This document shows positions 11,381-26,695 of a stretch of 42,765 bases of DNA, piece after piece (position 1 is the stretch's first letter; each line of letters opens with the position of its first letter). This stretch comes from Escherichia phage K1ind2, in the sequence record NC_041898.1, one strand, 5' to 3'. The notes under the pieces were generated by a model, which was given only the letters and a program-made list of their open reading frames with translations, made no database searches and had not been told where the DNA came from. Made by a program: the position numbers and the translations under genes.

Positions 11381-11935
11381 TTACAAACCTAATCTTAAAG
11401 CAATGCCTATAGCGTTCGATTTAACGTAACCCGGTATGATGTAGGTGTCATAATCTTTTACACCATCAATATCGTACAGGTAACCGCGGCTGTCCCCTTC
11501 AAACGTATGGCCGTCTCTGTGCAAGCGGACGATTCTCACATCATGCCCTGCGGCAACGATAGGGGCTACTTCGCTGGCGAACCCGCCATCAGACACCACA
11601 AAAACTTCGTCGCCGTCGGGCAAGTTTCCGGAAAGATACTTACCGAAATAATCATCACCGAATACCGGTTTAATGAATTGCTCGGAAATGGCAATCATGA
11701 ACTGACGCCGAGACAACCCGTTAAGGAAACCCTCTGGCTTTTCTTTCCGCGCCCGGTCGTCGTAGCCGTCGAGAAACTCGCGGTAAGCATCCTGGCCTAA
11801 CGCAGCCATAGCAATATTGAACATCGGATTCTTGAAACTGGCGACACCCTTCGCAAAGCCCATTTCTACCAGCGCCCTAGCAAGTGTGTCTTTCCCGCAG
11901 CCCGCAGGACCATTAAGAATAATTACCTTAGCCAT
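11381..11935 (-). CDS. P-loop kinase (dNMP kinase / polynucleotide kinase-like)
   Basis: 184 aa; Walker A GPAGCGKDT at residues 9-17; small nucleotide-kinase size; start overlaps stop of upstream HAD gene (TAATG). Confidence 0.6.
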   Translation of the reverse strand: MAKVIILNGPAGCGKDTLARALVEMGFAKGVASFKNPMFNIAMAALGQDAYREFLDGYDDRARKEKPEGFLNGLSRRQFMIAISEQFIKPVFGDDYFGKYLSGNLPDGDEVFVVSDGGFASEVAPIVAAGHDVRIVRLHRDGHTFEGDSRGYLYDIDGVKDYDTYIIPGYVKSNAIGIALRLGL

Positions 11936-12420
11936 TATTTATCACTCCCATGTGGTTTTAAGTGTGTAGAGTTCCCGTTACAGTCGTATTCAGTAACTGC
12001 GTGAGTGGTTATGCCGAGTTCGCGGAAATGCTTTATTACCGCTGGAGAGTCGTCGAATGCACACAAGATTCTCTCCGGCCCAATAGCACGCAACACCTCT
12101 TCTTTAATTACGATGTCTTTTCTGTTGTCGTGTTTGCTGCGCATGATTAACTGATAAAATTCGACGCGGTGGCGCTGCAACCACATTCTGGTTTCTTTTT
12201 CCGCGTCATCACTACGGCCTGTTAAGATAATAACGGCATAGCGACGATTAAGGGCGTTACACAGTTCGATGTTATCTTTAATGGGTGCATCGTCTTTGCA
12301 CGCCATGTTAAATGGTTTCCACGCCCAGGTTTCGCCGTAGTTATCTTTCGGCAGCAGGTGTAAACGATGAGTACCATCTGCCAATGTCCCGTCTAAATCG
12401 AAAATCACAATATCTTTCAT
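11935..12420 (-). CDS. HAD-superfamily phosphatase (PNK-type 3'-phosphatase-like)
   Basis: 161 aa; N-terminal DxDGT motif (IVIFDLDGTLADG), later ILTGRS and FDDS motifs in the order expected for HAD phosphatases; resembles my recollection of the T4 Pnk phosphatase domain. Confidence 0.7.
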   Translation of the reverse strand: MKDIVIFDLDGTLADGTHRLHLLPKDNYGETWAWKPFNMACKDDAPIKDNIELCNALNRRYAVIILTGRSDDAEKETRMWLQRHRVEFYQLIMRSKHDNRKDIVIKEEVLRAIGPERILCAFDDSPAVIKHFRELGITTHAVTEYDCNGNSTHLKPHGSDK

Positions 12421-13547
12421 CCAAGCATCTCCGGTGAAATAGTTAAACGTGCGACCTCGCCATATTCGGCGCTATAAGTAATTACGTTTGCACTGCGGCC
12501 CGACATCCATCCGCCGCGCGAGGCGTAGGCGTCTTTAGCCGCCAGGGTGCGGTGTTGTTCAACAATCATGTTACGGCTTTCTACAATCTTCTGATGGTGC
12601 AGGTGTCCTATATGGGCGTAGCTGTAAACACTCTCGCCGAACGCTTTGCGGAACTTGGCGATCATAACCGGTTCGATAGCATCGAAGCGTGCTTTATGGC
12701 CGTGGTGAAAGAACAGCGTAGTTTTGCCGTGTTGCACCATCTTGTAAACATCCGGCGACGTATCGACGAACACACGCGGCTCATTGTCGTACAGCGTACT
12801 AAACATCTCAGCTAACCAAATCATTCCGCTTTCGTCGTGGTTACCTTGCACAATAAGCAAGCGAACATTTTTATGCTTAACAAGGGCCATATCAACGACA
12901 CGGCGGACCATACGAATCATGTAGCGGACCAGTTTCTGATAGCGCGTGTCCGCATCGAGAACATGACCACTTGCCGGTGTAACGGCGTCCAGGCTATCGA
13001 AGTGCGCAAGGTCGCCGAGCAGATTAATAACTCCTGTTCCTGCATCCGGCGCTTTCTTAAACGCGGCATCGAACCAACGAGAGAACAGGTCTTCCGCGAT
13101 TTTCATATCCCAGTCGTCGCCGCTCTCGTCAGCCCATGCCAGCATACCGAGGTGAAAATCAGATACCGTGTAAAGATTGAGTAGCTTGCCGTCGCGTTTG
13201 GCGCGTGCTGCTTTAACAGGGGCGACTGGCGTAATCTCTGATTTCATTCCTTCGATTACGGCTTTCATCAACTCGACCTGACGTTCAGCATCGGTGTCTG
13301 TCTTAACCCATTGCAACTTAGTGTTGCCGAACTCGTCCACCAGCGACGACGTTCCTTTAATCTTGTAGCCGTCCGGCACAAGGTGACTAACGTCGCGCCC
13401 GTGGCCTACGCCTTTCTTAGCCAGCTTCGCTTTACGGATACGGATAACGCGGTCAGAGATGCCGTATTTACGAGCTATATCGATATTCTTCATCCCGGCG
13501 TTCAATTCTTCCTGCAACTGTTCGTCGGTTATTTTCTTCTGGGCCAT
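12417..13547 (-). CDS. Calcineurin-like metallophosphoesterase (SbcD/Mre11-like motifs) with N-terminal HTH-like domain
   Basis: 376 aa; N-terminal about 45 aa HTH-like (NIDIARKYGISDRVIRIR); metallophosphoesterase motifs in canonical order: SDFHLG, GDLAHFD, GNHDE, HHGH, GHLHH. No SbcC/Rad50-like partner in window. Confidence 0.7.
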   Translation of the reverse strand: MAQKKITDEQLQEELNAGMKNIDIARKYGISDRVIRIRKAKLAKKGVGHGRDVSHLVPDGYKIKGTSSLVDEFGNTKLQWVKTDTDAERQVELMKAVIEGMKSEITPVAPVKAARAKRDGKLLNLYTVSDFHLGMLAWADESGDDWDMKIAEDLFSRWFDAAFKKAPDAGTGVINLLGDLAHFDSLDAVTPASGHVLDADTRYQKLVRYMIRMVRRVVDMALVKHKNVRLLIVQGNHDESGMIWLAEMFSTLYDNEPRVFVDTSPDVYKMVQHGKTTLFFHHGHKARFDAIEPVMIAKFRKAFGESVYSYAHIGHLHHQKIVESRNMIVEQHRTLAAKDAYASRGGWMSGRSANVITYSAEYGEVARLTISPEMLG

Positions 13548-13585
13548 ACTTACTTCCTCGTGTTTAGGATTTGTCCTATACTAGC

Positions 13586-13777
13586 TCACTTCTCGTTAAC
13601 ATTCGAGTTGCACGCCCAGATTAAAATAAAGACCCACGGCAGCAGCGCCCAGCCAAGAAACAGATTAGCCATGAATATCGCTAACTTCGCTTTATGGTTA
13701 CGGAAGTACGCAACCAGGAAAGGCGCAAAATAAACGAGAAGTGCAAACAGAATTAAGGAAACTGGTAAACTTGACAT
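13586..13777 (-). CDS. Small inner-membrane protein (superinfection-immunity Imm-like)
   Basis: ORF track 13586-13792; second ATG (13777) has GGAGGG SD and is preferred (63 aa). Two predicted TM helices; YFAPFLVAYFRNHKAKLAIFMANLFLGWALLPW resembles the Imm_superinfect family signature as I recall it. Confidence 0.55.
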   Translation of the reverse strand: MSSLPVSLILFALLVYFAPFLVAYFRNHKAKLAIFMANLFLGWALLPWVFILIWACNSNVNEK

Positions 13778-13807
13778 TTTAAATCCCTCCATTGTTGGTG
13801 TAAGTGA

Positions 13808-13836
13808 ATAGTACCCTATTATATTGGGGTGTGCAA
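13808..13836 (-). promoter_or_regulatory. Sigma70-type promoter (TTGCAC-N17-TACTAT) driving the minus-strand island
   Basis: Minus-strand TTGCAC (plus 13831-13836), 17-nt spacer, TACTAT (plus 13808-13813); 35 of 37 nt identical to the plus-strand promoter at 36087-36123. Confidence 0.6.
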
Positions 13837-13944
13837 GTAATGTGATAGAATAATTTTGCGCCTAGTGTCGCACACGAAAAGCGGGTGGTTCCCGTCTGGC
13901 GCATTTATCGTTAACCTGTAACCTCTTAACCAAAGGATTAAAGA

Positions 13945-14361
13945 ATGAAACTTTCTGATTTTTATTTCGAAGAGAAAGCACTGGCGGGCAAGAAGATGCC
14001 GATTCTCCTGCCGAATGGCGAAGACTCCGGTGAGTGGCTTAACGTTGTAAATCCAGATGCGGATGCCGCCGTTAAAGCGGGGCGTGCTTTCATTATTGCG
14101 TACCGCCGCGGGCTGGCACGTTTTGAAGAACTGGAAAAAGCTGCCAAAGACTCTGGTGATTATACTGAATATAACCTGGCGGTTAACGAACTGGCAGAAG
14201 ACCTCAACCGGCAACTTGCGGCAGAAGTAGTAAACGGCTGGAGCTTTGACGAGCCTTTCTCTAAGGAAGCGTTTAGCAAATTGCTCGACCAATTCAAGGC
14301 ATTAGGTACACAGGTGGCGGCGTTCCATAACGCCGAGCGTAAAGCATTACAGGAAAAGTAG
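13945..14361 (+). CDS. Tail assembly chaperone (G-like)
   Basis: 138 aa acidic protein immediately upstream of the tape measure gene; overlapping -1 frame ORF downstream. Confidence 0.6.
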   Translation: MKLSDFYFEEKALAGKKMPILLPNGEDSGEWLNVVNPDADAAVKAGRAFIIAYRRGLARFEELEKAAKDSGDYTEYNLAVNELAEDLNRQLAAEVVNGWSFDEPFSKEAFSKLLDQFKALGTQVAAFHNAERKALQEK

Positions 14362-14726
14362 ACGCGCTGTACAGGTTCGCCACCTACGAGTTTGTGGATA
14401 AGCATAAAATCAGAGAGTTTGATTCTATCGCCGACGGACACGAACAGGCGCTTATCGCGATGGGTGTAATCGATAAGAAAAAACGTGCAGCGCGACGGGG
14501 TGGGCCAGAATGCCCGCCCCTTTTTATATCCACCTTTGAGACGTATTGCGACATTAAGTTTACGCGACACGTGCGCGAGGACGCTGTAGTATTGTTTGCA
14601 AGAGAATCTGTTACGTGGCAAGACCTGAAAGCCTATCTCGATGTTACGCAAAAACAGCTTAGCCTGTTCGAGATAGACATTATCATGGGCTTAGAAGCAA
14701 TCTTTGAAGGTAGAAATCATGGCTGA
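14343..14726 (+). CDS. Tail assembly chaperone -1 frameshift extension (GT-like)
   Basis: The -1 frame opens at 14343 (after TAA at 14340-14342) and overlaps the last 6 codons of the G-like ORF; candidate slip at GGAAAAG (14352-14358) just before the G stop; extension ends at 14726, overlapping the tape measure start. Confidence 0.5.
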   Translation, partial: SITGKVDALYRFATYEFVDKHKIREFDSIADGHEQALIAMGVIDKKKRAARRGGPECPPLFISTFETYCDIKFTRHVREDAVVLFARESVTWQDLKAYLDVTQKQLSLFEIDIIMGLEAIFEGRNHG

Positions 14727-16992
14727 TACCGCTAGCTTGATAGTACGAGTATCATCGACCGGCGTCGATAAAACCACATCACAACTGAACGGGCTTACCA
14801 AGGCGGCGGGGGCCGCCGCCGCCGCCGTTGTCAGTCTGGAAACCGCTAAGCAGGTGTTCAGCGCGCTGGTGGATTCCCAGCGAAACTTCGATAAGCTGAA
14901 CTCCGGCCTCATCACGATGACCGGGAGCGCCGAGAACGCGGCTAAGGCTTTCAGCGTACTGCAACAGTTCGCAAAAGAGACCCCGTACGGTCTCAATCAG
15001 GCGGTAGAGGGGTTTACCAAGCTCGTTGCGCTCGGTCTGAACCCCAGCAAAGAGGCGTTAATCTCCTACGGCAACACCGCGGCGGCTATGGGTAAAGACC
15101 TTAATCAGATGATTGAGGCAGTTGCCGACGCCAGTACATTTGAATTTGAGCGCTTAAAAGAGTTCGGCATCAAGTCGTCGCAACAGGCAGATACAGTTTC
15201 GTTCACGTTCCGCGGTGTAACGACCACGGTTAAGAAGAACTCCGAAGAGATTCAGAAATACCTCCTGAATATCGGCAACACCGATTTTGCCGGGGCGATG
15301 GAGACGCGCTCTAAGACGCTAGACGGCCAGTTATCGAGCCTCGCCGACTCCTTCGACGGTCTTGTTCTTGCGGTGGCGCAGTCTGGTTTTGGCGACGCCG
15401 TAGGTGAGCAAGCGGCCACAGCGGAAGACGCTATCACGGCGCTTACCGACGCCATCGCGTCTAATGAGATAGCCGCCACGCTCCAGGATTGGGTGGCGCT
15501 GTTCAATGAGTCATTCAAGTTTATTTCCGACGCCTTGAATGACCTGGCATTCGATACCGAGGACAAATCCGTTGATATGTCTGACTCGCTGGGGACTATA
15601 CCGGATGCCATCCGTGAGTGGTTGCCGGACATCCAGCAGACATTTCACGAGGTTATTGCGTGGTTCCAGCGCATCGACGATTACGCTGTAGCGTTAGGGC
15701 AGACCCTTGCCGACGTGTTTGACCCGAGCAAAACGGCGGCGCTAACATTTAAAAACCTGACCGCAGAGGCCGACGCCGCGTACGCCGCTAGCATAAAACG
15801 CGCAGAGGCAGAATCACAGGCCATTACCAACAGGTCTAAGCAGCGTAAGAAAGAAATTGAGGAACAGCGCAAGCAGTACGACGAGCGCAAGAAGCAAGAA
15901 ATTGACTTAGCCAGTCTTGTTAATAAAAAGGGCGGAACTGGCGGGGCAGGAAACACCGACGATAAAGCGGCAAAAGCCGCCGCCAAGAAAGCAGAACAAT
16001 TGCGGAATCAGGCGCAGGATTACCTCGACACTTTGGCTCGCCAGAACAACGATGAGTTAAAGGCTATCGACGCGCAGGAACAGCAGAAACTGGCTAAGGC
16101 AAAAGAGTTCTACAGCCAGGGCGCGCTGTCGCTGAAAGAATACGAACAGGCTAAAACAGCTATCGTCCTCGAAGCCGGGCAAAAACGGCAAGATGAACTG
16201 GATAAACGCCAGAAAGAAGCCCAGGAAAAGCAGCAGAAAGGCGACGACTTCATGGCTCAGATTATGGGCCAGAATGCCACTGAGCTTGAGCTTCTAGACA
16301 TCCAGGAACAGCAGAAACTGGCGGTCGCGGATAAGTACCGTGAGCAGGGGCTTATTAGTGAGACGCAGTATCAGGCCGCGCTTAACGCCATCAACGAGCA
16401 ATACGCAACCAAACGTGCCGATGCAACGGCAACGGCCTTTGGTAACATGGCCTCAAACATCGGGTCTGCGTTGGGTGAGGCTTCTGGCGCGTACAAGGCA
16501 TTCGCTATCGTACAGGCCACTATAGCCACGTACACCGCAGCTATTGAGGCGTACAAGTCAACGGCGGCTATCCCTGTAGTTGGCCCGTTCCTGGCCCCTG
16601 TAGCCGCTGCCGCTGCCGTTGGTGCAGGTATGGCGCAGGTTTCCGCTATCCGGTCCGCGCGTGAACAGGGTGGACAGTTATCCGCAGGGCAGGCTTCCAC
16701 CATCGCAGAACGCGGTAAACCAGAAGTTATTATGCCAGCTGGCGCATCTCGTGTTCGCACCGCGCAGCAGATGAAAGAGATTATGGGACAAAACGGGTCT
16801 TCTTCCGGCCCGTCTAATGTTACTATCGTAAACAACACGAGTTCTCAAATCGGCAACGTATCTACTGAGCAAGATGATGAAGGCCGTCTGCGTATCATCA
16901 TAGAAGAGCAAGTTGCTGCATCTTTGCAGAACAGCAACAGTAAGATTAGCAAGGCCCGCAAAGCCACAAGAAATGCGCCGGGGTTTAAATAA
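14719..16992 (+). CDS. Tail tape measure protein
   Basis: ORF track 14704-16992 (TTG); ATG 14719 preferred. About 760 aa, A/Q/E/K-rich and alpha-helical, located after the chaperone pair. Confidence 0.8.
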   Translation: MADTASLIVRVSSTGVDKTTSQLNGLTKAAGAAAAAVVSLETAKQVFSALVDSQRNFDKLNSGLITMTGSAENAAKAFSVLQQFAKETPYGLNQAVEGFTKLVALGLNPSKEALISYGNTAAAMGKDLNQMIEAVADASTFEFERLKEFGIKSSQQADTVSFTFRGVTTTVKKNSEEIQKYLLNIGNTDFAGAMETRSKTLDGQLSSLADSFDGLVLAVAQSGFGDAVGEQAATAEDAITALTDAIASNEIAATLQDWVALFNESFKFISDALNDLAFDTEDKSVDMSDSLGTIPDAIREWLPDIQQTFHEVIAWFQRIDDYAVALGQTLADVFDPSKTAALTFKNLTAEADAAYAASIKRAEAESQAITNRSKQRKKEIEEQRKQYDERKKQEIDLASLVNKKGGTGGAGNTDDKAAKAAAKKAEQLRNQAQDYLDTLARQNNDELKAIDAQEQQKLAKAKEFYSQGALSLKEYEQAKTAIVLEAGQKRQDELDKRQKEAQEKQQKGDDFMAQIMGQNATELELLDIQEQQKLAVADKYREQGLISETQYQAALNAINEQYATKRADATATAFGNMASNIGSALGEASGAYKAFAIVQATIATYTAAIEAYKSTAAIPVVGPFLAPVAAAAAVGAGMAQVSAIRSAREQGGQLSAGQASTIAERGKPEVIMPAGASRVRTAQQMKEIMGQNGSSSGPSNVTIVNNTSSQIGNVSTEQDDEGRLRIIIEEQVAASLQNSNSKISKARKATRNAPGFK

Positions 16993-18392
16993 TGAGCGAC
17001 TTATATTTCCCACGTAGCCTTAAGCCAATTGTATCGAAAGGCTACTCAATGACCAGACGTAACAACGTCTGGAGTGTAGATTTAGCCGGTGGCGGGGTGC
17101 GTCAGGGACGTGACACGTATTACGACGTGTTCCATGTTAGCGTAACCCTGATTACATCCGCAATGGGGCGACAGGCGTTTCTGTCGTTCCTTGAGAAAGT
17201 CGACGGTGGTGCGTCAAGTTTCTGGATGGCACACGACTTTGGCATGGGTATCGAGGATTATCAGGTAACCATTACGTCCACCATCGCCGAGTCCACAGAA
17301 GACGGCATTAACTGGACGATTACTTTCACGGCAACCGCCGAGAAATCACCGTTCCAGGACCTTGAGAACCAGTGCCTGATTAACAATCTTCCGGATTTGT
17401 ACGGCTGTTACGGGGATTGTCTGGGTAGTTTCCTGAAAATATACGCGAACTACGAGACGACGTTCCCGCGCATCTGGAGCAATGAAGGGCCTGCAGGATA
17501 CCCGCCGATTAACCTTCTGGCGTCGACTCTTGATAGCCGCATTGTGTATGACGGGCCGCAGGTTTATTACATCAACCGAAACGGCAATCTTGTGCAATCA
17601 GCCGCAAATGAATGGCCCCTTACGTTTATTGACGGGGTTGCTGTCGGGCGTGTGCCACCGGAGGTATCAGTAACTAACAGATTCCTATATTCAAGCAATT
17701 TCTCTTCGTCAAACTGGAACAAAGGTTTGGTGAGTGTATCAGTATCCGAAACAGGTGTTTTAACAGCCGCAGGCACGTACGACGTAACTGCTACCGCCAC
17801 AAGCGGTAACCACCTAATAAACCAGACTGTAGATGTTAGCGTTGGTGTTGGAGACATGGTTACTTTTAGTTTCTTCGCAAAAGCAAACGGATACAATTTC
17901 ATACGGATGTACGTGCGAGAACTTCCTACAGCATTAGGCTCAGCAGTTGTGGATTTGCGGGATGGTAGCATTTATTCCGGCCCAGGCGGTACAGATGTAA
18001 CCGACGTAGGCGGAGGGTGGTTCCGGATATCGGAGACAATCACCGCAACAGAAGATAAAACAATGAGCATACGGATGGACGCATGGATATATTCAGACGG
18101 AGTTACCGGGACCTTTGCGGGGGATGGCGTTTCAGGGATTAAATTATCCGCGGCTACCGTAGAGGTAAACCAAAATACAACATCCCCGGTAATAACCGAT
18201 GCCGTTGTTGCCACCCGCACGACAGCATCCGCGAAAGTAACCATGAACGGTGCAACAAGCATCGACATTACCTATTCAGACAGCTCTGTGGTAAACGTCC
18301 CGGCAGTTAATGGTTACGCTACCATCCCGCAAGCGGATTCTGCGTGGGGTAGTAAATACATCAATCGTATTGATTTTAATGTGGACGGTTAA
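16992..18392 (+). CDS. Minor tail protein (distal tail protein-like, putative)
   Basis: 466 aa ORF whose start overlaps the tape-measure stop; position equivalent to lambda M / Dit. Confidence 0.5.
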   Translation: MSDLYFPRSLKPIVSKGYSMTRRNNVWSVDLAGGGVRQGRDTYYDVFHVSVTLITSAMGRQAFLSFLEKVDGGASSFWMAHDFGMGIEDYQVTITSTIAESTEDGINWTITFTATAEKSPFQDLENQCLINNLPDLYGCYGDCLGSFLKIYANYETTFPRIWSNEGPAGYPPINLLASTLDSRIVYDGPQVYYINRNGNLVQSAANEWPLTFIDGVAVGRVPPEVSVTNRFLYSSNFSSSNWNKGLVSVSVSETGVLTAAGTYDVTATATSGNHLINQTVDVSVGVGDMVTFSFFAKANGYNFIRMYVRELPTALGSAVVDLRDGSIYSGPGGTDVTDVGGGWFRISETITATEDKTMSIRMDAWIYSDGVTGTFAGDGVSGIKLSAATVEVNQNTTSPVITDAVVATRTTASAKVTMNGATSIDITYSDSSVVNVPAVNGYATIPQADSAWGSKYINRIDFNVDG

Positions 18393-18395
18393 CTT

Positions 18396-18911
18396 ATGAG
18401 CCAAGAATCAGTAGAAGCAGCCTATCGCCGTAAGCTGGCCTCAAATCCCGACGGCGAGATGGACTACATCACGTTGCAAATCAGCCACCCGTTGCTGTCA
18501 AAGACGTATTATCTTGTGCGCGGGCTGCAGGAACTTACAGCAACACTGGAGACCGGCGAAACAATCACGTTCGAACCCACCCCGATGGAGGCGTCGGGGG
18601 CCGCTAACAACAGTGATATGGACCAGACGACGACGTTTACTCTACCGGATATTCTCAATCAACTGGACGATGAGATGGATAAAATCCCGATGAGCAATAC
18701 CGAGTTGCCGAAATTTGTCTTCCGCCGTTACGTCAGCACCGACCTGTCTTACCCGGCTGACGGCCCGGTCGTGTACGAGTTGCAGGCCATTAACCAGGAG
18801 AAGGGAGAGTTTTCTGCGGACGTCGGTACACCTATGCTGAACCAACGAAGCACTGGTATACTGATGACACCTAAAGAGATACCGTTATTACGCGGCCTGT
18901 TGACCACATGA
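18396..18911 (+). CDS. Minor tail protein (putative)
   Basis: 171 aa ORF in the post-tape-measure tail tip cluster. Confidence 0.45.
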   Translation: MSQESVEAAYRRKLASNPDGEMDYITLQISHPLLSKTYYLVRGLQELTATLETGETITFEPTPMEASGAANNSDMDQTTTFTLPDILNQLDDEMDKIPMSNTELPKFVFRRYVSTDLSYPADGPVVYELQAINQEKGEFSADVGTPMLNQRSTGILMTPKEIPLLRGLLTT

Positions 18912-19273
18912 ATATTAACGACTACACGGGCATACCTTACGACTTTCGCAAACGCAATTGCTGGCATCACGTGCGCATTGTCCGCGCGGATGCAGGGTTA
19001 GAAACCCCTGCGTTCGACGTTACAAGCCCTACGGCAATTAACGAAGCGTTTGACGAAGGCCACCGTGACACGAAGGGGCTTACAAAAATTGATAAGCCTG
19101 AAAACTTCTGCGCGGTGCTTATGGGTTATCGCCGCGGGGGTCGTATCGTGTGGCATGCGGGAGTTTACTTCGACGGGATGGTGAGTCATTGCGAGCTTGC
19201 ATCCCGCCAGGTACGGCTTGACAGGCTGGCGGACCTCAGAGACACGTACACGGAGATTGAATTTTGGCGATAA
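18908..19273 (+). CDS. Tail assembly protein (lambda K-like, putative)
   Basis: 121 aa; conserved Cys/His (NCWHHV...H) compatible with an NlpC/P60-type fold; position upstream of the J-like gene. Confidence 0.45.
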   Translation: MNINDYTGIPYDFRKRNCWHHVRIVRADAGLETPAFDVTSPTAINEAFDEGHRDTKGLTKIDKPENFCAVLMGYRRGGRIVWHAGVYFDGMVSHCELASRQVRLDRLADLRDTYTEIEFWR

Positions 19274-21819
19274 TCCTGCACTACTCGCGAAACGCTGATG
19301 GCGCTTTCGACCGTACAAAACACGTCGGGATGCCGATGGAGTTTGTTGTTAGCCGTATTCCGGACGGCGTGCCGGTGCGCGTCTACCTCGGCGAGATTGG
19401 CGATGATACTGATGTAACCGACGACTTCGATGCGCTTAAAGACGAAGACGCCGTGTACCACATTATTGAGGGAGCTGGTAGCGGGGCGCTTGGCGCCGTT
19501 AGTAAGGTGTTTGGTTTTATCCTTAAGCCAATCGCTAAGTTGTTCGGCCTGAACATGTCTGCAAACGCCAACTACACGGCGACTAATAACCAGACAACAT
19601 CGCCAAATAACAGCCTTACCGACCGCTCAAACAAGCCGCGTCCTTACGAGCGCTCTTATGACATCTGCGGGACTGTACAGACAATCCCTAACGACCTTAT
19701 GCAGACGTATAAGGCGTTCAACTCCACGGGTGCTTTGCTGGAGTATTCGTATTATGACGCTGGGCGCGGGCATCTGCATATCGAGGCTGATGGCGTCACA
19801 GAGGGCGACACCCTGATAAGCGACATCACAGGTTCCTCTGTTGCCATATACGCGCCGTATACGTCACCGAACAACACCACATCTCCGCAACTACAAATCG
19901 GCGACATCATTGACCAGAAACTCTATGTGACATACTCCAACGACGACGTTGACGGTATTGTACTAAAAGCGCCAAACGACATTGGGGCCAACCCAAGCGC
20001 TGATGGTACCGCAAAACGTATTTCAAACACCGGCTACATCTATGACCCGTCAGGGGACTCTGCTTTTTCTGAGTTTCTTAGCGTCGGTGATGTGGCAGTG
20101 CTGAGCAACTTTGACGTTGCTGATGTCACTAACCTGAACGGCTCGTTTGAGGTTTTATACGTCGACGACTTCGAAGTAAGATTAGCGGTAAACGGTGCGT
20201 CTAACTGGGCGGCGTTGACCAGCGGGCAGACGTACACGTTAACAGAGCGTTCAGATACGTTTATGGGCCCGAGCAACACCTATGACGTATCCCTTACCGA
20301 CTGGTATTACATGGTGCGCGGAGAAGTTGACCGAGTACTTGCTAACGTTGCCGGGCAGAACGGCCTCTACAAATACGACGGCGGCTATAATCGCACCAGC
20401 GTAACGGTAGAACTCCAGTACCAGATGATTGACTCTCGGCGCAACCCATTGAGCGATATTTACACAGTACAGGCTACAATTACCGGTAATAGCACGGATT
20501 ACGTCGGTACGTCTATCTACGGGCAATTGCCTACTGCATCGCGTTTCCGCGCCCGTATGCGCCGTATAACGAATTTTGATAAGGACTACAACGGTACAGT
20601 AAGCGACGAGATAACCTTCATCAACCTGTACGGGCAGTCGCTGGACACAACCCCACACTACGGCAACCGAACTACCGTGCATTGCGCACGTAAACAGACG
20701 CCGCGTGCCGCCAGTATCGACAACCCAGAACTGCGCATGATTGCGACCGAGATGTGCTACAAATATCTGGGTAATGGGGTATTCGACCCAGTAATGACGC
20801 CTAATACACAGGCGGTGCAGTCGCTAATCAGACTGGCGCGTGACCCGGCGGTTGGTAATCTGGAGCTGACAACGGCAAACATGGACAAGTTACTCGCCGT
20901 GCAGGAAGAGATTGAATCTTATTTTGGCAGCGAATTAGCCGGGCAATTCTGCTACACGTTCGACGACTACGACACCACGATGCAGGACATCGTTCAGACT
21001 ATAGCGGAAGCCGTGTTCTGTACTGCGTACCGTAAAGGCGCGGATATCATGCTGCGATTCGACCGTCCGGTTGCGGGGCCTGAAATGGTGTTCACCCACC
21101 GCAGCAAAACTACCGGTACAGAGAAATGGACCCGCACGTTCAACGATTCGACAACCTACGATAGCCTGTCGTTCTCGTACATCGACCCGGATACTAATGT
21201 ACAGGAAACGATTTATATCCCGGAAGAACTCGGCGCAAATACTGAGGAATACGAATCTAAGGGCGTGCGCAATTATCAGCAAGCGTACTGGCTGGCGTGG
21301 CGTCGCTACCAGCGCAATGCGTTAAGTAAAGTTGTCGTAGAGTTCGAAGCTACCGAAGAGGGGGCACTAGCTACACCGGGCGGCGTAATCAGTGTCGTTA
21401 AAGGCTCGCGTATCGCCCCGCAGGATGGCTATGTTGTTGCCGTTAATGGGCTTACGCTGACGCTGTCGCAGCCTGTTACGTTTACCGCGGGCGATGACCA
21501 CTCCATCATCCTCAAGAAGCGCGACGGCTCTGTACAGAGTATCTCTGTGGTCGAAGGAAGCCACGACCGCGAGGTGATTATGCTATCGGCGCCGGAGGAA
21601 GCAATCTACACGGGGAATAGCGCGCTAAAAACTGAGTTTTCATTCGGCAACGAAGCAAGGCATAATGCACAGAAGATAGTTGTTTCTTCAATCGACCCTG
21701 GCGACGACCGCACGGTCAAGATTACTGGCTACAACTATGACGACGGATTCTACAAATACGACGGCGTCGCGCCATACGGCAGCGGTTTCTCCGACGGATT
21801 CAGCAATGGTTTTAATTAA
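19264..21819 (+). CDS. Tail tip / central tail fiber protein (host specificity J-like, putative)
   Basis: 851 aa ORF (track start is TTG at 19264; ATG at 19330 is an alternative); largest tail gene after the tape measure. Confidence 0.55.
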   Translation: MAIILHYSRNADGAFDRTKHVGMPMEFVVSRIPDGVPVRVYLGEIGDDTDVTDDFDALKDEDAVYHIIEGAGSGALGAVSKVFGFILKPIAKLFGLNMSANANYTATNNQTTSPNNSLTDRSNKPRPYERSYDICGTVQTIPNDLMQTYKAFNSTGALLEYSYYDAGRGHLHIEADGVTEGDTLISDITGSSVAIYAPYTSPNNTTSPQLQIGDIIDQKLYVTYSNDDVDGIVLKAPNDIGANPSADGTAKRISNTGYIYDPSGDSAFSEFLSVGDVAVLSNFDVADVTNLNGSFEVLYVDDFEVRLAVNGASNWAALTSGQTYTLTERSDTFMGPSNTYDVSLTDWYYMVRGEVDRVLANVAGQNGLYKYDGGYNRTSVTVELQYQMIDSRRNPLSDIYTVQATITGNSTDYVGTSIYGQLPTASRFRARMRRITNFDKDYNGTVSDEITFINLYGQSLDTTPHYGNRTTVHCARKQTPRAASIDNPELRMIATEMCYKYLGNGVFDPVMTPNTQAVQSLIRLARDPAVGNLELTTANMDKLLAVQEEIESYFGSELAGQFCYTFDDYDTTMQDIVQTIAEAVFCTAYRKGADIMLRFDRPVAGPEMVFTHRSKTTGTEKWTRTFNDSTTYDSLSFSYIDPDTNVQETIYIPEELGANTEEYESKGVRNYQQAYWLAWRRYQRNALSKVVVEFEATEEGALATPGGVISVVKGSRIAPQDGYVVAVNGLTLTLSQPVTFTAGDDHSIILKKRDGSVQSISVVEGSHDREVIMLSAPEEAIYTGNSALKTEFSFGNEARHNAQKIVVSSIDPGDDRTVKITGYNYDDGFYKYDGVAPYGSGFSDGFSNGFN

Positions 21820-21831
21820 AGAGGACTCTAT

Positions 21832-23997
21832 ATGTCAAGCGGATGCGGTGACGTTTTAAGCCTGGCGGATTTACAGACCGCCAAGAAACACCAGATTTTC
21901 GAAGCTGAGGTTATTACCGGTAAATCCGGCGGGGTTGTTGGTGGTGCCGATATTGATTACGCGACCAATCAGGTTACAGGGCAGACGCAGAAGACACTCC
22001 CTGCGGTTCTTAAAAGCATTGGTTTTGCCGTGGCTGATTTTAATTTCGATTCTGGAGGTACTCTTGCATCTGGGGACGAGAACAAGATAGTACTCTGGCC
22101 GTTGCCGGGGGGCGATGGTCAGTACTACTCCTGGACTGGTGCGTATCCTAAGATTGTTCCCGCATCCTCGTCCCCGACAACAGGATGGAAACTTATAGAC
22201 GGCTCTGCATTACGAATCGACCTGTCAGAATTTAGTGGGGCTTCTCTGGTTGGGTACTCTTACGACGGTAGCCTAAGCACCACAAAAAGAACGGTTGCTG
22301 ATAAATTAGATGATATGGTCAGCCTGTGGGATTTTCATTGTGACTCATCCGGGGATGTAATTCAGCCTGGGGTTAGCGTTGACAGTCGTCAGTATCTGCA
22401 AGCAGCTATAGACTACCTTAACGCAAACGGCGGTGGCACACTACATATACCGGAAGGTACATGGTATCTGAATAGCGTTAGCACAGGACCTGTATCGGGT
22501 CATAGTGGCCTAATACAATTGAAAAGCAATGTAAGTATTAAGCTAGACGGTACTATTAAAGTAGGGTCTGCTTTGGCCTCCTCGTCATTTCAGGTGTTTG
22601 TAGGATTTGATAATGGCGACCCCGCAAGCTCCGGTAATCTCAATAATTGCCATATTTACGGCAACGGTACGATAGACTTTGGTGGTTATGACTTTGGGGC
22701 GACATCACAGTTACGCAACGGTATCGCTTTTGGTCGCAGCTACAACTGCTCAGTAACCGGTATTACTTTCCAGAACGGTGATGTTACTTGGGGTGTTACC
22801 CTTGGCTGGAATGGGTATGGGTCTGATTGCAAGGTATCTAACTGTAAGTTTATTAATTTGATACAGAGTGCTAACAACGCGGACCACAGTACCGTATATG
22901 TTAACTGTCCTTTCAGTGGTGTAGATAACTGCATATTCCGTGCGGTGAGTTCAAGGGCGCAAGTTATAGCGTGTTCAGTGGAGCTACACCAACATGATAC
23001 CTGGTACAGAGATTCAATTATCTCCGGATACACACGCGGCTGTTATGTGGCTCTGCATGGGGCAGAATCCGCAGGAGCGGGTACATACCTGTACAATGCT
23101 GTTGTGTCAGGGGTAATTGGTGATATTTCCGGGCAAGCAGTAATTTTAGCCGCGGGTCCGGATTCAACAGCCACCACCCACATTAACGGTGTGTCTATCG
23201 AGAACTGTAGATTTACCGCCGGTAGTCAGGCGGGTATGTGCAGCTTCATAGACTTCTTCCAAGATAGTAACTCGAACTCTAGCCAGTACCTCATTAACCA
23301 TGTAACGGTTAAAGGGTGCAGCTTCATTGTAGACCGTAGCCGGTCTCTGTCTGCGGCAATAACCTTAAACGGTAGTATCCAGGGCATTATTTTTCAGAAT
23401 AATTTCTTTGATGTTAAGCAGGCAATGGTGTCGGAACTGCCTGATGGTCGTACCGTACAATTGAAGAGGTTCAACTGGGATAGCAGTAACATCATTGGCG
23501 ACGATAATACCGGAACCCGTACCGCATTAAATCTGTTTGAGACTCTTCGCGTTTCGAGCATGACAAGATGTAATATAAGTATTCGTATGCGGCATCCAAG
23601 TTCGGAACTGTATAGCTTCATGTATTTCAGGCCGAATGCTACAACATTCAGCGACTGTACCTTTGAGGTATTGCCATATAATTGGTCTTGCACATCCGGT
23701 AATCCTATATTTTTTGACAGTACAGGCGCCCCGGCGTCTGGAATGCGCGTCAGGTTTCCTAAACAAATTTCGTTCACATTGTCAGCCGGGAGTAACGCCC
23801 AACGTGCAACGGGTGGTTCTTCGTACTCTTGGGTGGCCCGGGCGGACGCTCTTGACCGTCGCGGTATTTCTGGACAATTTGATGCCCCTTCATCGTATGC
23901 GGGATCGAGTAACGGGCAGTTGGTAGGTCTAGGCTGGCAGCTTGACGGCGTACAACATACGTATGACCATAACGTTCTTTTGCAAAGTTTTACCTGA
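21832..23997 (+). CDS. Tailspike / receptor-binding depolymerase with parallel beta-helix
   Basis: 721 aa; repeated beta-helix rung signatures (NCHIYGNGTIDFGG, NCSVTGITFQNG, NCKFINL, NCIFRAV, NCRFTAG, GCSFIVD), as in pectate-lyase-like phage depolymerases; last gene of the structural operon. Confidence 0.7.
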   Translation: MSSGCGDVLSLADLQTAKKHQIFEAEVITGKSGGVVGGADIDYATNQVTGQTQKTLPAVLKSIGFAVADFNFDSGGTLASGDENKIVLWPLPGGDGQYYSWTGAYPKIVPASSSPTTGWKLIDGSALRIDLSEFSGASLVGYSYDGSLSTTKRTVADKLDDMVSLWDFHCDSSGDVIQPGVSVDSRQYLQAAIDYLNANGGGTLHIPEGTWYLNSVSTGPVSGHSGLIQLKSNVSIKLDGTIKVGSALASSSFQVFVGFDNGDPASSGNLNNCHIYGNGTIDFGGYDFGATSQLRNGIAFGRSYNCSVTGITFQNGDVTWGVTLGWNGYGSDCKVSNCKFINLIQSANNADHSTVYVNCPFSGVDNCIFRAVSSRAQVIACSVELHQHDTWYRDSIISGYTRGCYVALHGAESAGAGTYLYNAVVSGVIGDISGQAVILAAGPDSTATTHINGVSIENCRFTAGSQAGMCSFIDFFQDSNSNSSQYLINHVTVKGCSFIVDRSRSLSAAITLNGSIQGIIFQNNFFDVKQAMVSELPDGRTVQLKRFNWDSSNIIGDDNTGTRTALNLFETLRVSSMTRCNISIRMRHPSSELYSFMYFRPNATTFSDCTFEVLPYNWSCTSGNPIFFDSTGAPASGMRVRFPKQISFTLSAGSNAQRATGGSSYSWVARADALDRRGISGQFDAPSSYAGSSNGQLVGLGWQLDGVQHTYDHNVLLQSFT

Positions 23998-24007: not shown

Positions 24008-24031
24008 TAAGGCCCCAAACGGGGCCTTTTC
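24008..24031. terminator. Bidirectional terminator between tailspike and minus-strand replication module
   Basis: aaggcccc-aaacg-gggcctt hairpin with flanking T-runs; near copy of the terminator at 11358-11380. Confidence 0.65.
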
Positions 24032-24032: not shown

Positions 24033-24170
24033 CTACTCTTCTGATAACTTCTCCAGTACAAACGCCAGTTGCGCATTAGCAGCGTCTCTTTGCTGCCGTA
24101 GTCGTAGAACCTCTTCCTCGAGTTCCTTGATACGTTTTTGCAATGCTGGAATGGGGGCTATGATGTTCAT
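24033..24170 (-). CDS. Small hypothetical coiled-coil protein (45 aa)
   Basis: Hand-found ORF below the track threshold; ATG overlaps stop of upstream ORF (ATGA); heptad-like ELEEEVLRLRQQ sequence. Confidence 0.3.
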   Translation of the reverse strand: MNIIAPIPALQKRIKELEEEVLRLRQQRDAANAQLAFVLEKLSEE

Positions 24171-24352
24171 TTCTTACCTTCGCTTTTCTTGAAACTGCGC
24201 TTTATATCCGGCAGCGTGTAGCACCGTGATTTTTCGTATTTACCGTCCGAGCTTACCAAAACAAAGCTGTTGCCGTCTTTTGATATGTACTCGATGGCGA
24301 AAATATTAAATGAATGTACGCTGTATATTTCATCGCCAACATTAAGTTTCAT
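24167..24352 (-). CDS. Hypothetical protein
   Basis: 61 aa; ATGA overlap with helicase stop. Confidence 0.4.
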   Translation of the reverse strand: MKLNVGDEIYSVHSFNIFAIEYISKDGNSFVLVSSDGKYEKSRCYTLPDIKRSFKKSEGKK

Positions 24353-25773
24353 TTCTTACCTCGTCTCTTCATGTAATTAAGCAATTCTTCCTGGACCGAT
24401 TTTTTCTCGTCGGTGCGCGCGGCAACAACCTCGTCCAGCGTGTCTTTAGCAACGATGTGATACAGGAACACCGGTCGCTCGTGCCCCGCCTGTTTCTGGC
24501 GGACCGGGCCTATTCGCTCGACAACCTGCAAATAGTGTTCAAGATTCCAGCCTTGCGAAATAAACGCCAGATGATGCCCGCCGTCCTGTAAATTCAAACC
24601 ATGCCCGGCTGACGCAGGATGCACGCATAAGATTTCGATTTCCCCGCGGTTCCACGCTTCCATCTGCTTATTGCCCTTAGCGCCTTTGGCGAACGCCTGT
24701 GCTTGTGGGAATCGCTTAAGGATACGCTCCAGTTCGTGCTTAAACTGATAGGCTACCAGTAACGGTGCGCCCTGTAACTCCTCAACAATGGACTCAAGCG
24801 CATCCAGTTTCGTATCGTGCACTTTCTCCCAGTCTTTCGTTGCTTCGCCGTCTGGCCCGGATACATACACGGCACCGGATGCAATCTGCAGGCACTTCGA
24901 CGTCTTCGCAGCAGCGTTAGCCGCTTCAACTTCCCCGCTCTCCAGTTCCGCGAATAACTTTTCCTCCATATCGATGTACGCCTGACGCGCCTTCTTCGGC
25001 AGGTCGATTTCAACCGGTACAATAATCGGCGCTTCGCAACCAAACCACTCGGCGGCGTCAATCGTGAGACTAATGTCTTTCATCTTCTGATGAATCTCAT
25101 TATCCGCACCCGGTCGTGCGTGATACTCCCGCGCCATCGCGGATTTCCCTTTCTGTACCGAGTTAAACCAGCGGTCTGTGAATGCCGTGTACGAAGAACC
25201 AAGGCGCTCGCCAGCGTCGATAAACCAGTTCTGCCCCCACAAGTCCTTGAGGCCGTTCGGCGACGGTGTGCCTGTCAGGTTAATGAAACGCTTAACCTTT
25301 CCGAACGCCACTTTGCTTAGCGCCTTAGCCCGTTTGCTTCCTCCAGAACGGCTACGGAAAGATTTCAGCTTCGTGCTCTCATCAGCAACGATAACCGTAA
25401 AAGGCCAGTCGTCTTTGCCGTAGTAGTCAATCAGCCACTCGATAACTTCGTAGTTTGTGCACACCACGTTAGCATCTGACTCCAGCGCCGCGATACGGCG
25501 CTTCTCTGAACCGGTTGCGTCTACGACACTCAGACAGGGGAAGTTCCAACGTGCCTGTTCCGCGGGCCACGTACCTGACGCAACACGTAAAGGAGCCAGA
25601 ATTAACACTCGGTCGTCGTCATTAAGTTGCCCATTACGGAACAGTCGATTGAGAACCCACAACGTTGACCCCGACTTACCGCTGCCCATGCTCGCCCAGA
25701 TATTGCAGCGATGGTGCCGCAGCATGAACGAAGTCATGAGCTTCTGGTATTCGCGCCTTTGAAACTTACTCAT
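24349..25773 (-). CDS. SNF2-family (superfamily 2) DNA helicase
   Basis: 474 aa; Walker A ASMGSGKSGST; DEST-type Walker B (VIVADESTKLK); C-terminal helicase domain motifs. Confidence 0.8.
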   Translation of the reverse strand: MSKFQRREYQKLMTSFMLRHHRCNIWASMGSGKSGSTLWVLNRLFRNGQLNDDDRVLILAPLRVASGTWPAEQARWNFPCLSVVDATGSEKRRIAALESDANVVCTNYEVIEWLIDYYGKDDWPFTVIVADESTKLKSFRSRSGGSKRAKALSKVAFGKVKRFINLTGTPSPNGLKDLWGQNWFIDAGERLGSSYTAFTDRWFNSVQKGKSAMAREYHARPGADNEIHQKMKDISLTIDAAEWFGCEAPIIVPVEIDLPKKARQAYIDMEEKLFAELESGEVEAANAAAKTSKCLQIASGAVYVSGPDGEATKDWEKVHDTKLDALESIVEELQGAPLLVAYQFKHELERILKRFPQAQAFAKGAKGNKQMEAWNRGEIEILCVHPASAGHGLNLQDGGHHLAFISQGWNLEHYLQVVERIGPVRQKQAGHERPVFLYHIVAKDTLDEVVAARTDEKKSVQEELLNYMKRRGKK

Positions 25774-26695
25774 TTACCGCCCCCATGAATGCCTTTATAA
25801 ATTCAGCGGCTACTTGCGGGACGATGGCATTGCCATAACCGCGCAATCGTCCCACTCTGGCGGGTATCCCATTAGCCAGCGGGAATGTGCCGGGTTCAAC
25901 TGGCCTGAATTTTCCATCACGGCATCCGAGCCAGTCAGTATCTGACCAGAAGCCGTGATGCGGATTGGTTGTGTTATTTTCAGACCCTGCTCCGTCGAGT
26001 AGTCCAGCCTGTCGAATGTCCTGTCCTTCCCGTCCTTGCGAATCACTGTCTCTCCGCTCCCCCTGTAGTCGTTCGCTGTCGGTGTAGGCCAAGCCGCCAT
26101 CGCAGCGGCCCATCCCAGTTTGTTCGGTTTCGTCCTGCCGTCTGTGCTGCGCATGTTCACGTCGTTTGTTATCAGTGATACCGCCGGTGTGGGCCAGTCT
26201 GTGAGCGCCGAAGAACAGTCTGTCGCGTTTGTGCGGTGCGCCGACGCTACAAGCTGGGAGTACGGCAAACCCGACGGCGTAGTCTTCTCCTTCCAGGTGA
26301 GTTTGTAAATCGCACATCCACGATTTTGCAATTGCTGGCGCAACCTGCTCCCCAAAGAGGACTGGAGGTCGGCACTCGCTGATAAGGTCGAGGAACACAG
26401 GTGCGAGGTGTCTCGGGTCGAACTGTCCGAGTTGCTTTCCCGCCGCGCTAAACGGTTGGCAAGGCGGGCTTCCCGTCCAGAGAGGCGCATCTTCCGGAAC
26501 TCCCGCAAGTCTGAGCGCGAGAGGCCAGCCGCCGATACCCGCGAAAAAATGACACTGGGTGAACCCGTCAAGGTCTTCTGGCTTAACTTCGGTAATGCTT
26601 CTTTCATCTACAACTCCAAAAGGTATGTGACCCTGTTTTATCAACTCACGCAGCCACGCGGCTGCGCCTTTATCCCATTCATTGTAATAGTTCAT
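25766..26695 (-). CDS. DNA cytosine-C5 methyltransferase-like protein (frame anomaly in middle)
   Basis: 309 aa; motif I FAGIGG, motif IV GSPPCQPFSAAGK, ENV-like FGEQV, motif VIII APHKRDRLFFG, C-terminal motif X GNAIVPQVAA. Central 100 aa are low-complexity, while an overlapping same-strand ORF (25810-26607) reads a protein-like segment ending in a motif IX-like LNPAHSRWLMGYP. Confidence 0.65.
   Translation of the reverse strand: MNYYNEWDKGAAAWLRELIKQGHIPFGVVDERSITEVKPEDLDGFTQCHFFAGIGGWPLALRLAGVPEDAPLWTGSPPCQPFSAAGKQLGQFDPRHLAPVFLDLISECRPPVLFGEQVAPAIAKSWMCDLQTHLEGEDYAVGFAVLPACSVGAPHKRDRLFFGAHRLAHTGGITDNKRREHAQHRRQDETEQTGMGRCDGGLAYTDSERLQGERRDSDSQGREGQDIRQAGLLDGAGSENNTTNPHHGFWSDTDWLGCRDGKFRPVEPGTFPLANGIPARVGRLRGYGNAIVPQVAAEFIKAFMGAVNE

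Follow-up and report, generated by a model that had tools for sequence, protein, structure and literature searches.

The tailspike of Escherichia phage K1ind2 joins a Kagunavirus anchor to an HK620-type beta-helix predicted to cleave the O18 O-antigen

The window analysed here is a stretch of 42,765 nucleotides from Escherichia phage K1ind2 (NC_041898.1), a K1ind-type Kagunavirus with 97% identity to K1ind1 and K1ind3 over nt 1-20000. The tailspike gene (Table 1) follows a tail gene whose stop codon occupies positions 21817-21819, and a GC-rich hairpin starts 12 nt past its own stop codon. The terminator scan calls this hairpin on the - strand alone, with the T-run AGTTTTATTT, and the + strand side carries a weaker T-rich tail, TTCTCTACTCTTC. 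The genes beyond the hairpin are replication genes on the - strand, convergent with the tail operon. Because the hairpin and then convergent genes come next, the tailspike gene is the final gene of the + strand tail operon, which is where an earlier note on this DNA had placed it, with exactly the same ORF boundaries. No RNA gene is found in the whole window by Rfam at the gathering threshold or by ARAGORN, and the seven promoters predicted around the tailspike gene do not exceed the number expected from shuffling (4.4 +/- 1.8). Three antisense ORFs on the - strand within the gene (22740-23033, 23394-23777 and 23527-23766) are taken as chance.

Table 1. Features of the tailspike gene and its flanks (window positions).
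Feature	Position	Strand	Basis
Tailspike gene, 721 aa + stop	21832..23997	+	ORF table
Ribosome-binding site AGAGGA, 6 nt 5' of ATG	21820..21825	+	direct sequence reading
Likely bidirectional intrinsic terminator hairpin, AAGGCCCC-AAAC-GGGGCCTT	24009..24028	.	terminator scan and sequence
N-terminal anchor, aa 1-~130, by which Kagunavirus tailspikes bind to the particle	21832..22221	+	BLASTP, PHROG
Right-handed parallel beta-helix body, aa ~131-600 (end approximate), with eight rung motifs and active site	22222..23630	+	phmmer, AF2, Foldseek
C-terminal beta-sandwich, aa ~600-721 (start approximate)	23632..23994	+	long antiparallel strands in model; HK620 alignment to aa 708
Recombination zone in the beta-helix, aa ~260-330	22610..22830	+	informative-site analysis, sliding nucleotide identity, L007 megablast
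Specificity cassette, aa ~330-721, with the catalytic rungs, the distal beta-helix and the C-terminal beta-sandwich	22830..23997	+	identity scans
Codon of Asp351 (HK620 TSP Asp339, EP75 TSP1 Asp384)	22882..22884	+	alignments
Codon of Glu384 (HK620 TSP Glu372, EP75 TSP1 Glu417)	22981..22983	+	alignments
Codon of Phe476 (EP75 TSP1 Phe509; aligns with HK620 Gly, Gly469 counting Met)	23257..23259	+	alignment

Neither the gene nor its chimeric make-up nor the predicted O18 specificity is new, as all three are documented in GenBank (2010) and in Pas et al. 2023. K1ind3 ORF27 (ADA82474.1, GU196281) is 100% identical over all 2166 nt and the K1ind1 tailspike gene (GU196279 / NC_041897; Bull, Vimr & Molineux 2010) is 98.5% identical over the same length, both at the same genomic position. 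K1ind3 ORF27 carries the GenBank note 'N-term. similar to 63D and C-term similar to HK620 Tsp', and in Pas et al. 2023 the K1ind1 receptor-binding protein (RBP) is given as specific for O18 through horizontal transfer, its anchor extending to aa 125. The literature covered contains no assay of a K1ind tailspike protein. A protein with 79% identity, EP75 TSP1, was characterised in 2021. The small addition made here is the recombination zone within the beta-helix and two opposite mosaics of it in other phages.

The N-terminal anchor is shared widely across the genus. BLASTP aligns it with the K1G endosialidase tailspike, with 59 of 60 residues identical in aa 1-60 and about 50% identity in aa 61-139. 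PHROG 29731 covers aa 1-128 with an E value of 1e-55. The Pfam family Tail_spike_N (PF18668) reaches 23.5 bits, short of its cut-off of 25, and covers aa 95-117 only, and precomputed PF18668 matches occur in many homologues of the tailspike. A model of the anchor domain (pLDDT 73.5) matches the N-terminal domains of CBA120 TSP1/3/4 and G7C gp63.1 (E 5e-5 to 5e-4). K1G, K1H and 63D-type Kagunavirus spikes have the same anchor at the same position in a syntenic genome, whereas their receptor-binding part is wholly other, a 984-aa endosialidase against the K1 capsule. The comparison with related phages that the earlier note had proposed thus finds one anchor common across Kagunavirus, the K1G spike included, and this anchor is a genus-wide N-terminal module independent of the receptor-binding domain.

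From aa 131 onwards, the protein follows the tailspike of phage HK620. The PDB match is the HK620 tailspike 2VJI (phmmer, E 1.2e-163, aa 131-708 against chain residues 9-588), and tblastn with HK620 gp9 gives 46.8% identity over 99% of the query. An AlphaFold2 monomer model of the tailspike has a pLDDT of 90.4 and a pTM of 0.79, and its best Foldseek matches are 26 HK620 TSP entries with TM scores of 0.92-0.93 and rmsd of 2.5-2.7 A over about 606 columns. The right-handed parallel beta-helix announced by the earlier note is therefore borne out by both the sequence match and the structure prediction. In profile searches, the C-terminus matches Pfam HK620_9_C with only 17.2 bits against a cut-off of 27, and hmmscan at E <= 1 reports PF18781, PF18668 and PF22424 only. 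According to PMC8217332, which cites Barbirz 2008, D339 and E372 are the catalytic residues of the HK620 enzyme. Their counterparts D351 and E384 are each kept in 51 of 52 homologues, and the D351 exception is a PDB mutant-like sequence. The tailspike is most likely an O-antigen endo-N-acetylglucosaminidase, that is, a hydrolase, as judged from the conserved catalytic pair and the homology to HK620.

The rung motif on which the beta-helix had been proposed, [NG]C.[FVI], occurs eight times in the tailspike, with its Cys at residues 273, 306, 338, 359, 367, 404, 459 and 496, against 0.48 +/- 0.68 (maximum 5) in 20,000 composition-preserving shuffles. Phe, Val or Ile stands at position +2 of 13 of the 16 Cys residues of the protein. 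The earlier count of at least six motifs is thus exceeded, but the spacing is regular in part only, with gaps of 33, 32, 21, 8, 37, 55 and 37 residues. When Cys placement relative to the rungs is judged by the DSSP strand register of the AF2 model, six of the eight motif Cys lie directly N-terminal of a short beta-strand, as would be expected of equivalent positions in consecutive rungs. Because homologues have Val, Ala or Asn in place of the motif Cys, N-C-x-F is a structural signature of the rungs and not a functional motif.

The GC content of the tailspike gene is 47.7%, compared with 51.4% for the whole window, 52.4% for the tail operon at 14704-21819 and 53.3% for the downstream genes, and its GC3 of 45.8% is the lowest among the 27 ORFs of at least 150 aa (z = -2.1). 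The gene is thus more AT-rich than the neighbouring tail genes, as claimed before. Windowed calculation shows that 7% of 2166-nt windows are equally AT-rich, the others lying in 34.5-38.4 kb and a few at 39.7-42.2 kb. The composition is split within the gene: aa 131-721 have a low GC content of 47.0%, compared with a genome-like 51.0% for the anchor. A low GC content also marks the tailspike genes with this receptor-binding domain in all carriers examined, namely HK620 (45.2%), the E9 prophage (45.1%) and EP75 (43.7%). The lower GC content of the gene is explained by acquisition of the receptor-binding module by recombination.

Horizontal exchange of the receptor-binding module, the other part of that claim, is supported by the records. 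Of 118 phage records that match the gene, mostly from Kagunavirus, 114 share no more than nt 1 to ~170-180, with 87-94% identity; the gene past the anchor recurs behind P22-like, Kuttervirus and T7-like N-termini. A recombination zone, in which two opposite mosaics change from one parent to the other, lies inside the beta-helix. The segment aa ~260-330 is the most conserved one between HK620-type and K1ind-type spikes (up to 90% protein and 84% nucleotide identity to HK620 gp9 in aa ~260-340, compared with 47% identity overall). Downstream of it, the specificity cassette is 79-99% identical in nucleotides to the P22-like prophage tailspikes of O18 E. coli, with 87-99% in most 30-codon windows, and 66-84% identical to EP75 TSP1. 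Beyond aa ~420, its identity to HK620 falls to about 40% in nucleotides and 15-35% in protein. The P22-like (Lederbergvirus-type) prophage spikes of O18 E. coli (WP_261306811.1 from strain E9; P0002-P0009) share the K1ind2 cassette from aa ~330, whereas their first ~260 residues, comprising the head-binding domain and the first rungs, are 98-100% nucleotide-identical to HK620. Because their proximal part is HK620-identical and their distal part K1ind-like, these spikes are HK620/K1ind mosaics. The metagenomic Kagunavirus L007 has the opposite arrangement to that of E9, K1ind-type proximal and HK620-type distal, and its megablast alignment stops at position 22824.

The closest characterised relative is EP75 TSP1 (gp167) of a Kuttervirus (PMC8217332), with 79.1% identity over aa 131-721; both proteins have the catalytic Asp/Glu pair and a Phe where the branch-glucose pocket is proposed to lie. 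EP75 TSP1 differs in having a Kuttervirus TSP1 anchor and in belonging to a four-spike complex on a myovirus, and its nucleotide identity is only ~70%, so the transfer is not recent. In the experiments of PMC8217332, EP75 TSP1 forms haloes on lawns of E. coli O18A and blocks the adsorption of EP75 there, but is inactive on O18A1, O18B and O18B1. Taken with the kept catalytic pair, the haloes support the earlier proposal of a polysaccharide depolymerase. HK620 gp9 (2VJI; Barbirz et al. 2008), an O18A1 endo-N-acetylglucosaminidase, has the same fold, the same domain order from aa 131 and the D339/E372 pair, but a podovirus P22-type head-binding N-terminus and a distal helix and C-terminal domain that are only 15-35% identical. 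The HK620 TSP cleaves both O18A1 and O18A LPS (PMC6024685), and thus accepts the branched O18A1 antigen that the EP75-type spike does not (PMC8217332). Because the K1 strain DSM10809 is listed as O18A:K1 (PMC6024685), K1 strains are taken here as O18A; no mapping of O18ab/O18ac onto O18A/O18B was found in the accessible part of a review of E. coli O-antigens.

The low identity to HK620 beyond aa ~420 includes part of the sugar-binding groove, and fine specificity can therefore not be read from HK620. The glucose-pocket loop is IGPDNSG in HK620 and FFQDSNS here, with a 4-residue indel in addition. The HK620 Gly aligned to Phe476 lies in a loop beside D470/N471/S472, and the local sequence SFIDFFQDSNS, including the Phe that replaces this Gly, is common to the K1ind2 tailspike and EP75 TSP1. 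PMC8217332 proposes a 'Gly to Phe switch' that closes the pocket for the branch glucose of O18A1, and Phe476 is probably that switch. By analogy with EP75, for which this homology-model argument was made, the variant formed by aa ~330-721 most likely prefers the unbranched O18A repeat of O18:K1 strains.

Host data point to the same antigen. The host given in the K1ind1 and K1ind3 records is E. coli O18:K1:H7. Six of 5426 complete E. coli genomes have the cassette (nt 22800-23997) in a prophage tailspike, with 86-92% nucleotide identity. O18 wzx/wzy genes are present in 69 of the 5426, and five of the six cassette carriers are among those listed. The sixth has O18 glycosyltransferase genes beside gnd with 99.3% identity to UTI89, and O18-type O-antigen genes are thus present in all six.

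The GenBank product name 'tailspike 63D sialidase', borne by the K1ind1, K1ind3 and EP75 records, would make the protein an endosialidase that depolymerises the K1 capsule, and aa 1-139 do resemble the K1G tailspike of the same product name. However, this similarity ends at aa ~139 with no alignment beyond, and the remainder is an HK620-type beta-helix. Neither a beta-propeller nor a stalk nor a C-terminal chaperone domain is detected by Pfam at E <= 1, the depositors liken only the N-terminus to 63D, and the K1ind phages are defined as K1-independent. Since the likeness to K1G stops at aa 139, the sialidase reading is rejected at the level of sequence and fold, and its probability is close to nil. 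A beta-helix polysaccharide lyase, acting by a pectate-lyase mechanism on capsule or exopolysaccharide and sparing LPS, would share the fold class, and remoter Foldseek matches include Acinetobacter phage capsule depolymerases, galacturonidases, and alginate epimerases and lyases. K1ind spikes have also been assigned to PF12708 (PMC11641727), but this assignment is not reproduced: neither PF12708 (Pectate_lyase_3) nor PF13229 (Beta_helix) matches at E <= 1. The PDB pectate lyase 5OLP is matched with an E value of 0.065 over 44 residues only. The established O18 structure, reportedly described by Jann et al. in 1992, has no uronic acid in its repeat for beta-elimination, which counts against a lyase. 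The sole close relatives are the HK620 TSP, an Asp/Glu hydrolase, and EP75 TSP1, the catalytic pair is kept, and in all six genomes the prophage copy goes together with the O18 O-antigen locus. A lyase is thus very improbable, and of the earlier description as pectate-lyase-like the fold class stands, whereas the homologous enzyme is a glycoside hydrolase (endo-N-acetylglucosaminidase) whose substrate is LPS O-antigen and not a capsule.

It is also unlikely, though not to that degree, that the protein is an HK620-family spike with a far diverged distal half that recognises a non-O18 O-serogroup or binds without cutting. The weak identity to HK620 beyond aa ~420, the 4-residue deletion and the other loops around the glucose pocket would be compatible with such a spike, as would close relatives in Salmonella Kuttervirus phages and in a Citrobacter genome. 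However, the distal half is 80-93% protein-identical to EP75 TSP1, which is O18A-active in experiments (PMC8217332); near-identical prophage spikes occur only in O18 E. coli among the 5426 genomes; and the isolation host of the K1ind phages is O18:K1:H7, with the catalytic residues intact.

The K1ind2 tailspike is very probably built from a Kagunavirus anchor and a beta-helix enzyme of the HK620 type, which binds and cleaves the O18 O-antigen of LPS. As receptor-binding protein it would be the single tailspike of this siphovirus, a K1ind-type Kagunavirus that infects E. coli O18:K1:H7 with no need for the K1 capsule. Residues 1-~130 would fix a presumably trimeric spike to the tail tip, and residues ~131-721 would hold the O18 O-antigen in the helix groove. 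The antigen would be hydrolysed via Asp351 and Glu384 by endo-N-acetylglucosaminidase action, and this cutting would let the virion work down to the outer membrane. The receptor-binding module would have been gained by recombination. A further proposal, which we regard as having about an even chance of being right, is that the beta-helix is exchanged in parts as well as whole: aa ~260-330, just N-terminal of the catalytic rungs, would serve as a joint that moves the distal cassette among K1ind siphoviruses, which are virulent, EP75-like myoviruses and P22-like temperate prophages, such that the K1ind/EP75 cassette and the HK620 cassette are the O18A-restricted and the O18A1-tolerant alleles of one enzyme.

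The name 'tailspike 63D sialidase' is wrong for the K1ind tailspike, and this misleading name has spread to EP75 as well; a fitting name is O-antigen-specific tailspike (HK620-like endo-N-acetylglucosaminidase). The near-identical prophage cassette and the breakpoint within the helix provide a natural starting point for engineering spikes that are specific for O18A or for O18A1. An O18-directed spike would, moreover, account for infection of O18:K1:H7 that is independent of the K1 capsule, and this capsule independence is relevant to the long-known poorer performance of K1-independent phages in therapy models.

At the nucleotide level, the tailspike gene shows 100% identity to ORF27 of K1ind3 and 98.5% to the tailspike gene of K1ind1, and backbone nt 1–20000 show 97% identity to both sister phages and about 92% to K1G. 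These identities place the window, as judged from sequence, among the K1ind-type Kagunavirus phages (Guernseyvirinae). The GenBank record of K1ind3 names E. coli O18:K1:H7 as the isolation host of this phage type. The structural region of K1ind3 (GU196281, record positions 1–20696) is about 700 bp longer than its counterpart in the window. Because the spike is 100% but the structural region 97% identical to that of K1ind3, spike and backbone divergence are unequal even among the three K1ind isolates.

Features of the tailspike gene and its borders in the window
Feature	Position	Strand	Remark
Tailspike ORF	21832–23997	+	721 aa
Ribosome-binding site AGAGGA	6 nt upstream of tailspike ORF	+	from sequence
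GC-rich hairpin	24009–24028		starts 12 nt past tailspike stop; T-run on − strand, weaker T-rich tail on + strand

The gene is located directly downstream of the gene for an 851-aa distal tail protein. Because a hairpin follows its stop codon and the genes beyond it (a 61-aa ORF, an SNF2-type helicase and a C5 methylase) are convergent, the tailspike gene closes the tail operon, as the earlier note had placed it. The 61-aa ORF (24167–24352, − strand) has a very low GC content (39.2%) and shares 4 nt with the start of the helicase gene; its counterpart is annotated in K1G (ORF28) and not in K1ind3. The C5 cytosine methylase gene (25766–26695, − strand; 309 aa, Pfam DNA_methylase, E = 2e-16) fully encloses, in another frame, a 265-aa candidate ORF (25810–26607, also − strand) that K1ind3 and K1G annotate as 'putative Mte8-like protein'. 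Pfam gave no match for either ORF.

Residues 131–708 match the tailspike of the P22-like podovirus HK620 (gp9; PDB 2VJI plus some 25 entries of mutants or complexes) with an E value of 1.2e-163 among PDB sequences. An AlphaFold2 model built from 80 homologues (mean pLDDT 90.4) gives TM 0.92–0.93 and rmsd 2.5–2.7 Å when superposed on the tailspike structures of HK620, and the next structural matches are other phage tailspikes, followed by galacturonidases and similar beta-helix enzymes. The model therefore predicts a right-handed parallel beta-helix that is followed by a C-terminal beta-sandwich, in agreement with the beta-helix tailspike proposed from the sequence. HK620 gp9 is an endo-N-acetylglucosaminidase that cuts the O18A1 (and O18A) O-antigen (PMC6024685). 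Asp351 and Glu384 align with its catalytic Asp339 and Glu372, and each is kept in 51 of 52 aligned family members, the exceptions resembling PDB mutant sequences.

The rung motif [NG]C.[FVI], of which the earlier note had seen at least six regularly spaced copies, occurs eight times (Cys 273, 306, 338, 359, 367, 404, 459 and 496) against a shuffled expectation of 0.48 ± 0.68; six or more copies were not reached in any of 20,000 shuffles. Phe, Val or Ile is found at +2 of 13 of the 16 Cys residues. The abundance of the motif therefore stands; its regular spacing holds only in part along the sequence, where the intervals (33, 32, 21, 8, 37, 55 and 37 residues) are roughly regular at most. In the model, a short beta-strand begins right after six of the eight motif Cys, as expected if one position recurs in successive rungs. 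Because the motif Cys alternates with Val, Ala or Asn among the 52 homologues while the hydrophobic residue at +2 is kept, the motif is a signature of packing in the helix core and not a functional motif.

The N-terminus is a genus-specific anchor. It is identical at 59 of the first 60 residues to the 984-aa endosialidase spike of K1G, shows about 50% identity to it over aa 61–139 and does not align with it beyond aa 139. Among 118 matching phage records, 114 align only to the first ~170–180 nt of the gene. A model of aa 1–160 (pLDDT 73.5) matches the N-terminal domains of CBA120 TSP1, TSP3 and TSP4 and of G7C gp63.1 (E about 5e-5), and Pfam Tail_spike_N scores just below threshold. In line with this, the note deposited with K1ind3 ORF27 reads 'N-term. 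similar to 63D and C-term similar to HK620 Tsp'. Only relatives of the anchor are described by the product name 'tailspike 63D sialidase'; neither a Pfam scan nor alignment to the K1G spike detected an endosialidase domain. Proteins devoid of a sialidase domain carry this name in the K1ind1 and K1ind3 records and in Kuttervirus EP75, whose ORF167 (TSP1; EP75 locus L002, 1015–3279) later proved O18A-specific. In a review table, 'the' 63D enzyme is represented by K1G accession ADA82273.1.

Codon-aligned nucleotide comparisons revealed two opposite mosaics. The spike of the E. coli E9 prophage matches HK620 at 98–100% identity as far as aa ~255 and, from aa ~330 on, the window at 87–99% in most stretches. 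The spike of a metagenomic Kagunavirus contig (L007), which shows synteny with the window and about 88% identity to it in aligned parts, is window-like (mostly 82–97%) up to aa ~260–300, 94–100% HK620-like from aa ~300 to ~555, and then carries a third type of C-terminal domain. Both switch within nt ~22610–22830 (aa ~260–330), where K1ind-type and HK620-type genes agree most (76–84% nucleotide identity); past aa ~420, they have 15–35% of residues in common. Elsewhere, this receptor-binding domain is preceded by other N-termini, among them those of Kuttervirus TSP1 and of a T7-like type (PF03906), and this recurrence, together with the mosaics, bears out the suggested horizontal exchange of the receptor-binding module. 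In L007 (ERZ27234733 k141_306414), an HNH endonuclease gene (PF13392; 12360–12851) lies between the tailspike and SNF2 helicase genes, and it is absent there from the window. A mobile nuclease beside the most recombinogenic gene may merit attention.

Computation confirmed that the gene, judged AT-rich by eye, has a GC content of 47.7%, below that of the window (51.4%) and of the tail operon (52.4%), and its GC3 (45.8%) is the lowest of 27 long ORFs. The drop is restricted to aa 131–721 (47.0%; anchor, 51.0%). Since tailspike genes with this domain are AT-rich in every carrier examined (HK620, 45.2%; E9, 45.1%; EP75, 43.7%), the composition fits a cassette in circulation between phages and not one adjusted to the Kagunavirus backbone. 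The most AT-rich region of the window is ~34500–38400 (GC 41.6–46% in 1-kb windows), with many small ORFs and a sharp switch of GC skew at about 36 kb; this is likely to be a divergently transcribed early-gene or regulatory region.

EP75 TSP1 is the closest characterised relative, with 79% identity over aa 131–721 compared with 47% for the HK620 tailspike. In the EP75 study (PMC8217332), TSP1 produces haloes on E. coli O18A strain DSM10809, lowers EP75 adsorption on it and is without activity on O18A1, O18B and O18B1; the authors explain the O18A1 inactivity by a Gly-to-Phe change closing the branch-glucose pocket. The window protein and TSP1 have the local sequence SFIDFFQDSNS in common, and Phe476 aligns with a Gly of HK620 in the loop adjoining D470/N471/S472 of that protein. 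By this alignment, Phe476 would be the published switch residue. The conserved Asp/Glu pair and the O18A activity of TSP1 also favour the polysaccharide depolymerase put forward earlier, as a predicted activity.

The distal cassette (nt 22800–23997) was found in 6 of 5426 complete E. coli genomes at 86–92% nucleotide identity, always within annotated phage tailspikes; in E9, the one carrier examined, the spike belongs to a P22-like prophage and adjoins P22-gp16, Arc and Ant genes. The wzy-wzx segment of UTI89, used as O18 marker in the same collection, was present in 69 genomes (1.3%); the 60 listed out of these 69 matches include five of the six carriers. The sixth, 20AR0354, has two glycosyltransferase genes adjoining gnd that are 99.3% identical to the UTI89 O18 cluster. 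Because all six carriers belong to a serogroup making up 1.3% of the collection, there is strong evidence that the cassette tracks O18. In E9 (L006, 5338–6441) and HK620 (L003, 2945–3755), the O18-type tailspike is immediately followed by a convergent O-antigen polymerase-like or modification gene, which suggests that seroconversion is linked to the spike module in these P22-like elements.

Sequence and fold rule out an endosialidase. The close hydrolase relatives, together with the conserved Asp/Glu pair and the link to O18, make a lyase that acts on a capsule unlikely. A spike for a different serogroup, or a non-catalytic one, is improbable, since it would run against the EP75 results and the O18 prophage test. 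Beyond the observed domain architecture, fold, catalytic pair, modular exchange and link to O18 genomes, we infer that the tailspike is active, trimeric and prefers unbranched O18A. As established for HK620, such an O18 O-antigen tailspike would bind the O-antigen along the helix and hydrolyse it as an endo-N-acetylglucosaminidase, and this cleavage would bring the virion to the membrane. DSM10809, an O18:K1 strain, is listed as O18A (PMC6024685), which fits the K1ind host.

Nothing of substance here is new: annotation from 2010 already covers the gene and its chimeric make-up, the K1ind1 spike has been listed as an O18 RBP gained by horizontal transfer with an anchor end at aa 125 (Pas et al. 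2023), and K1ind spikes are termed endo-N-acetylglucosaminidases in a review-type statement (PMC11641727). The small additions are the in-helix recombination joint with its opposite mosaics, a distal cassette nearly identical to those of O18 E. coli prophages, the EP75-type Phe in common, and a product name, 'sialidase', that is a misnomer and has reached EP75 as well. With LPS as the receptor instead of the capsule, independence from K1 is the natural outcome.
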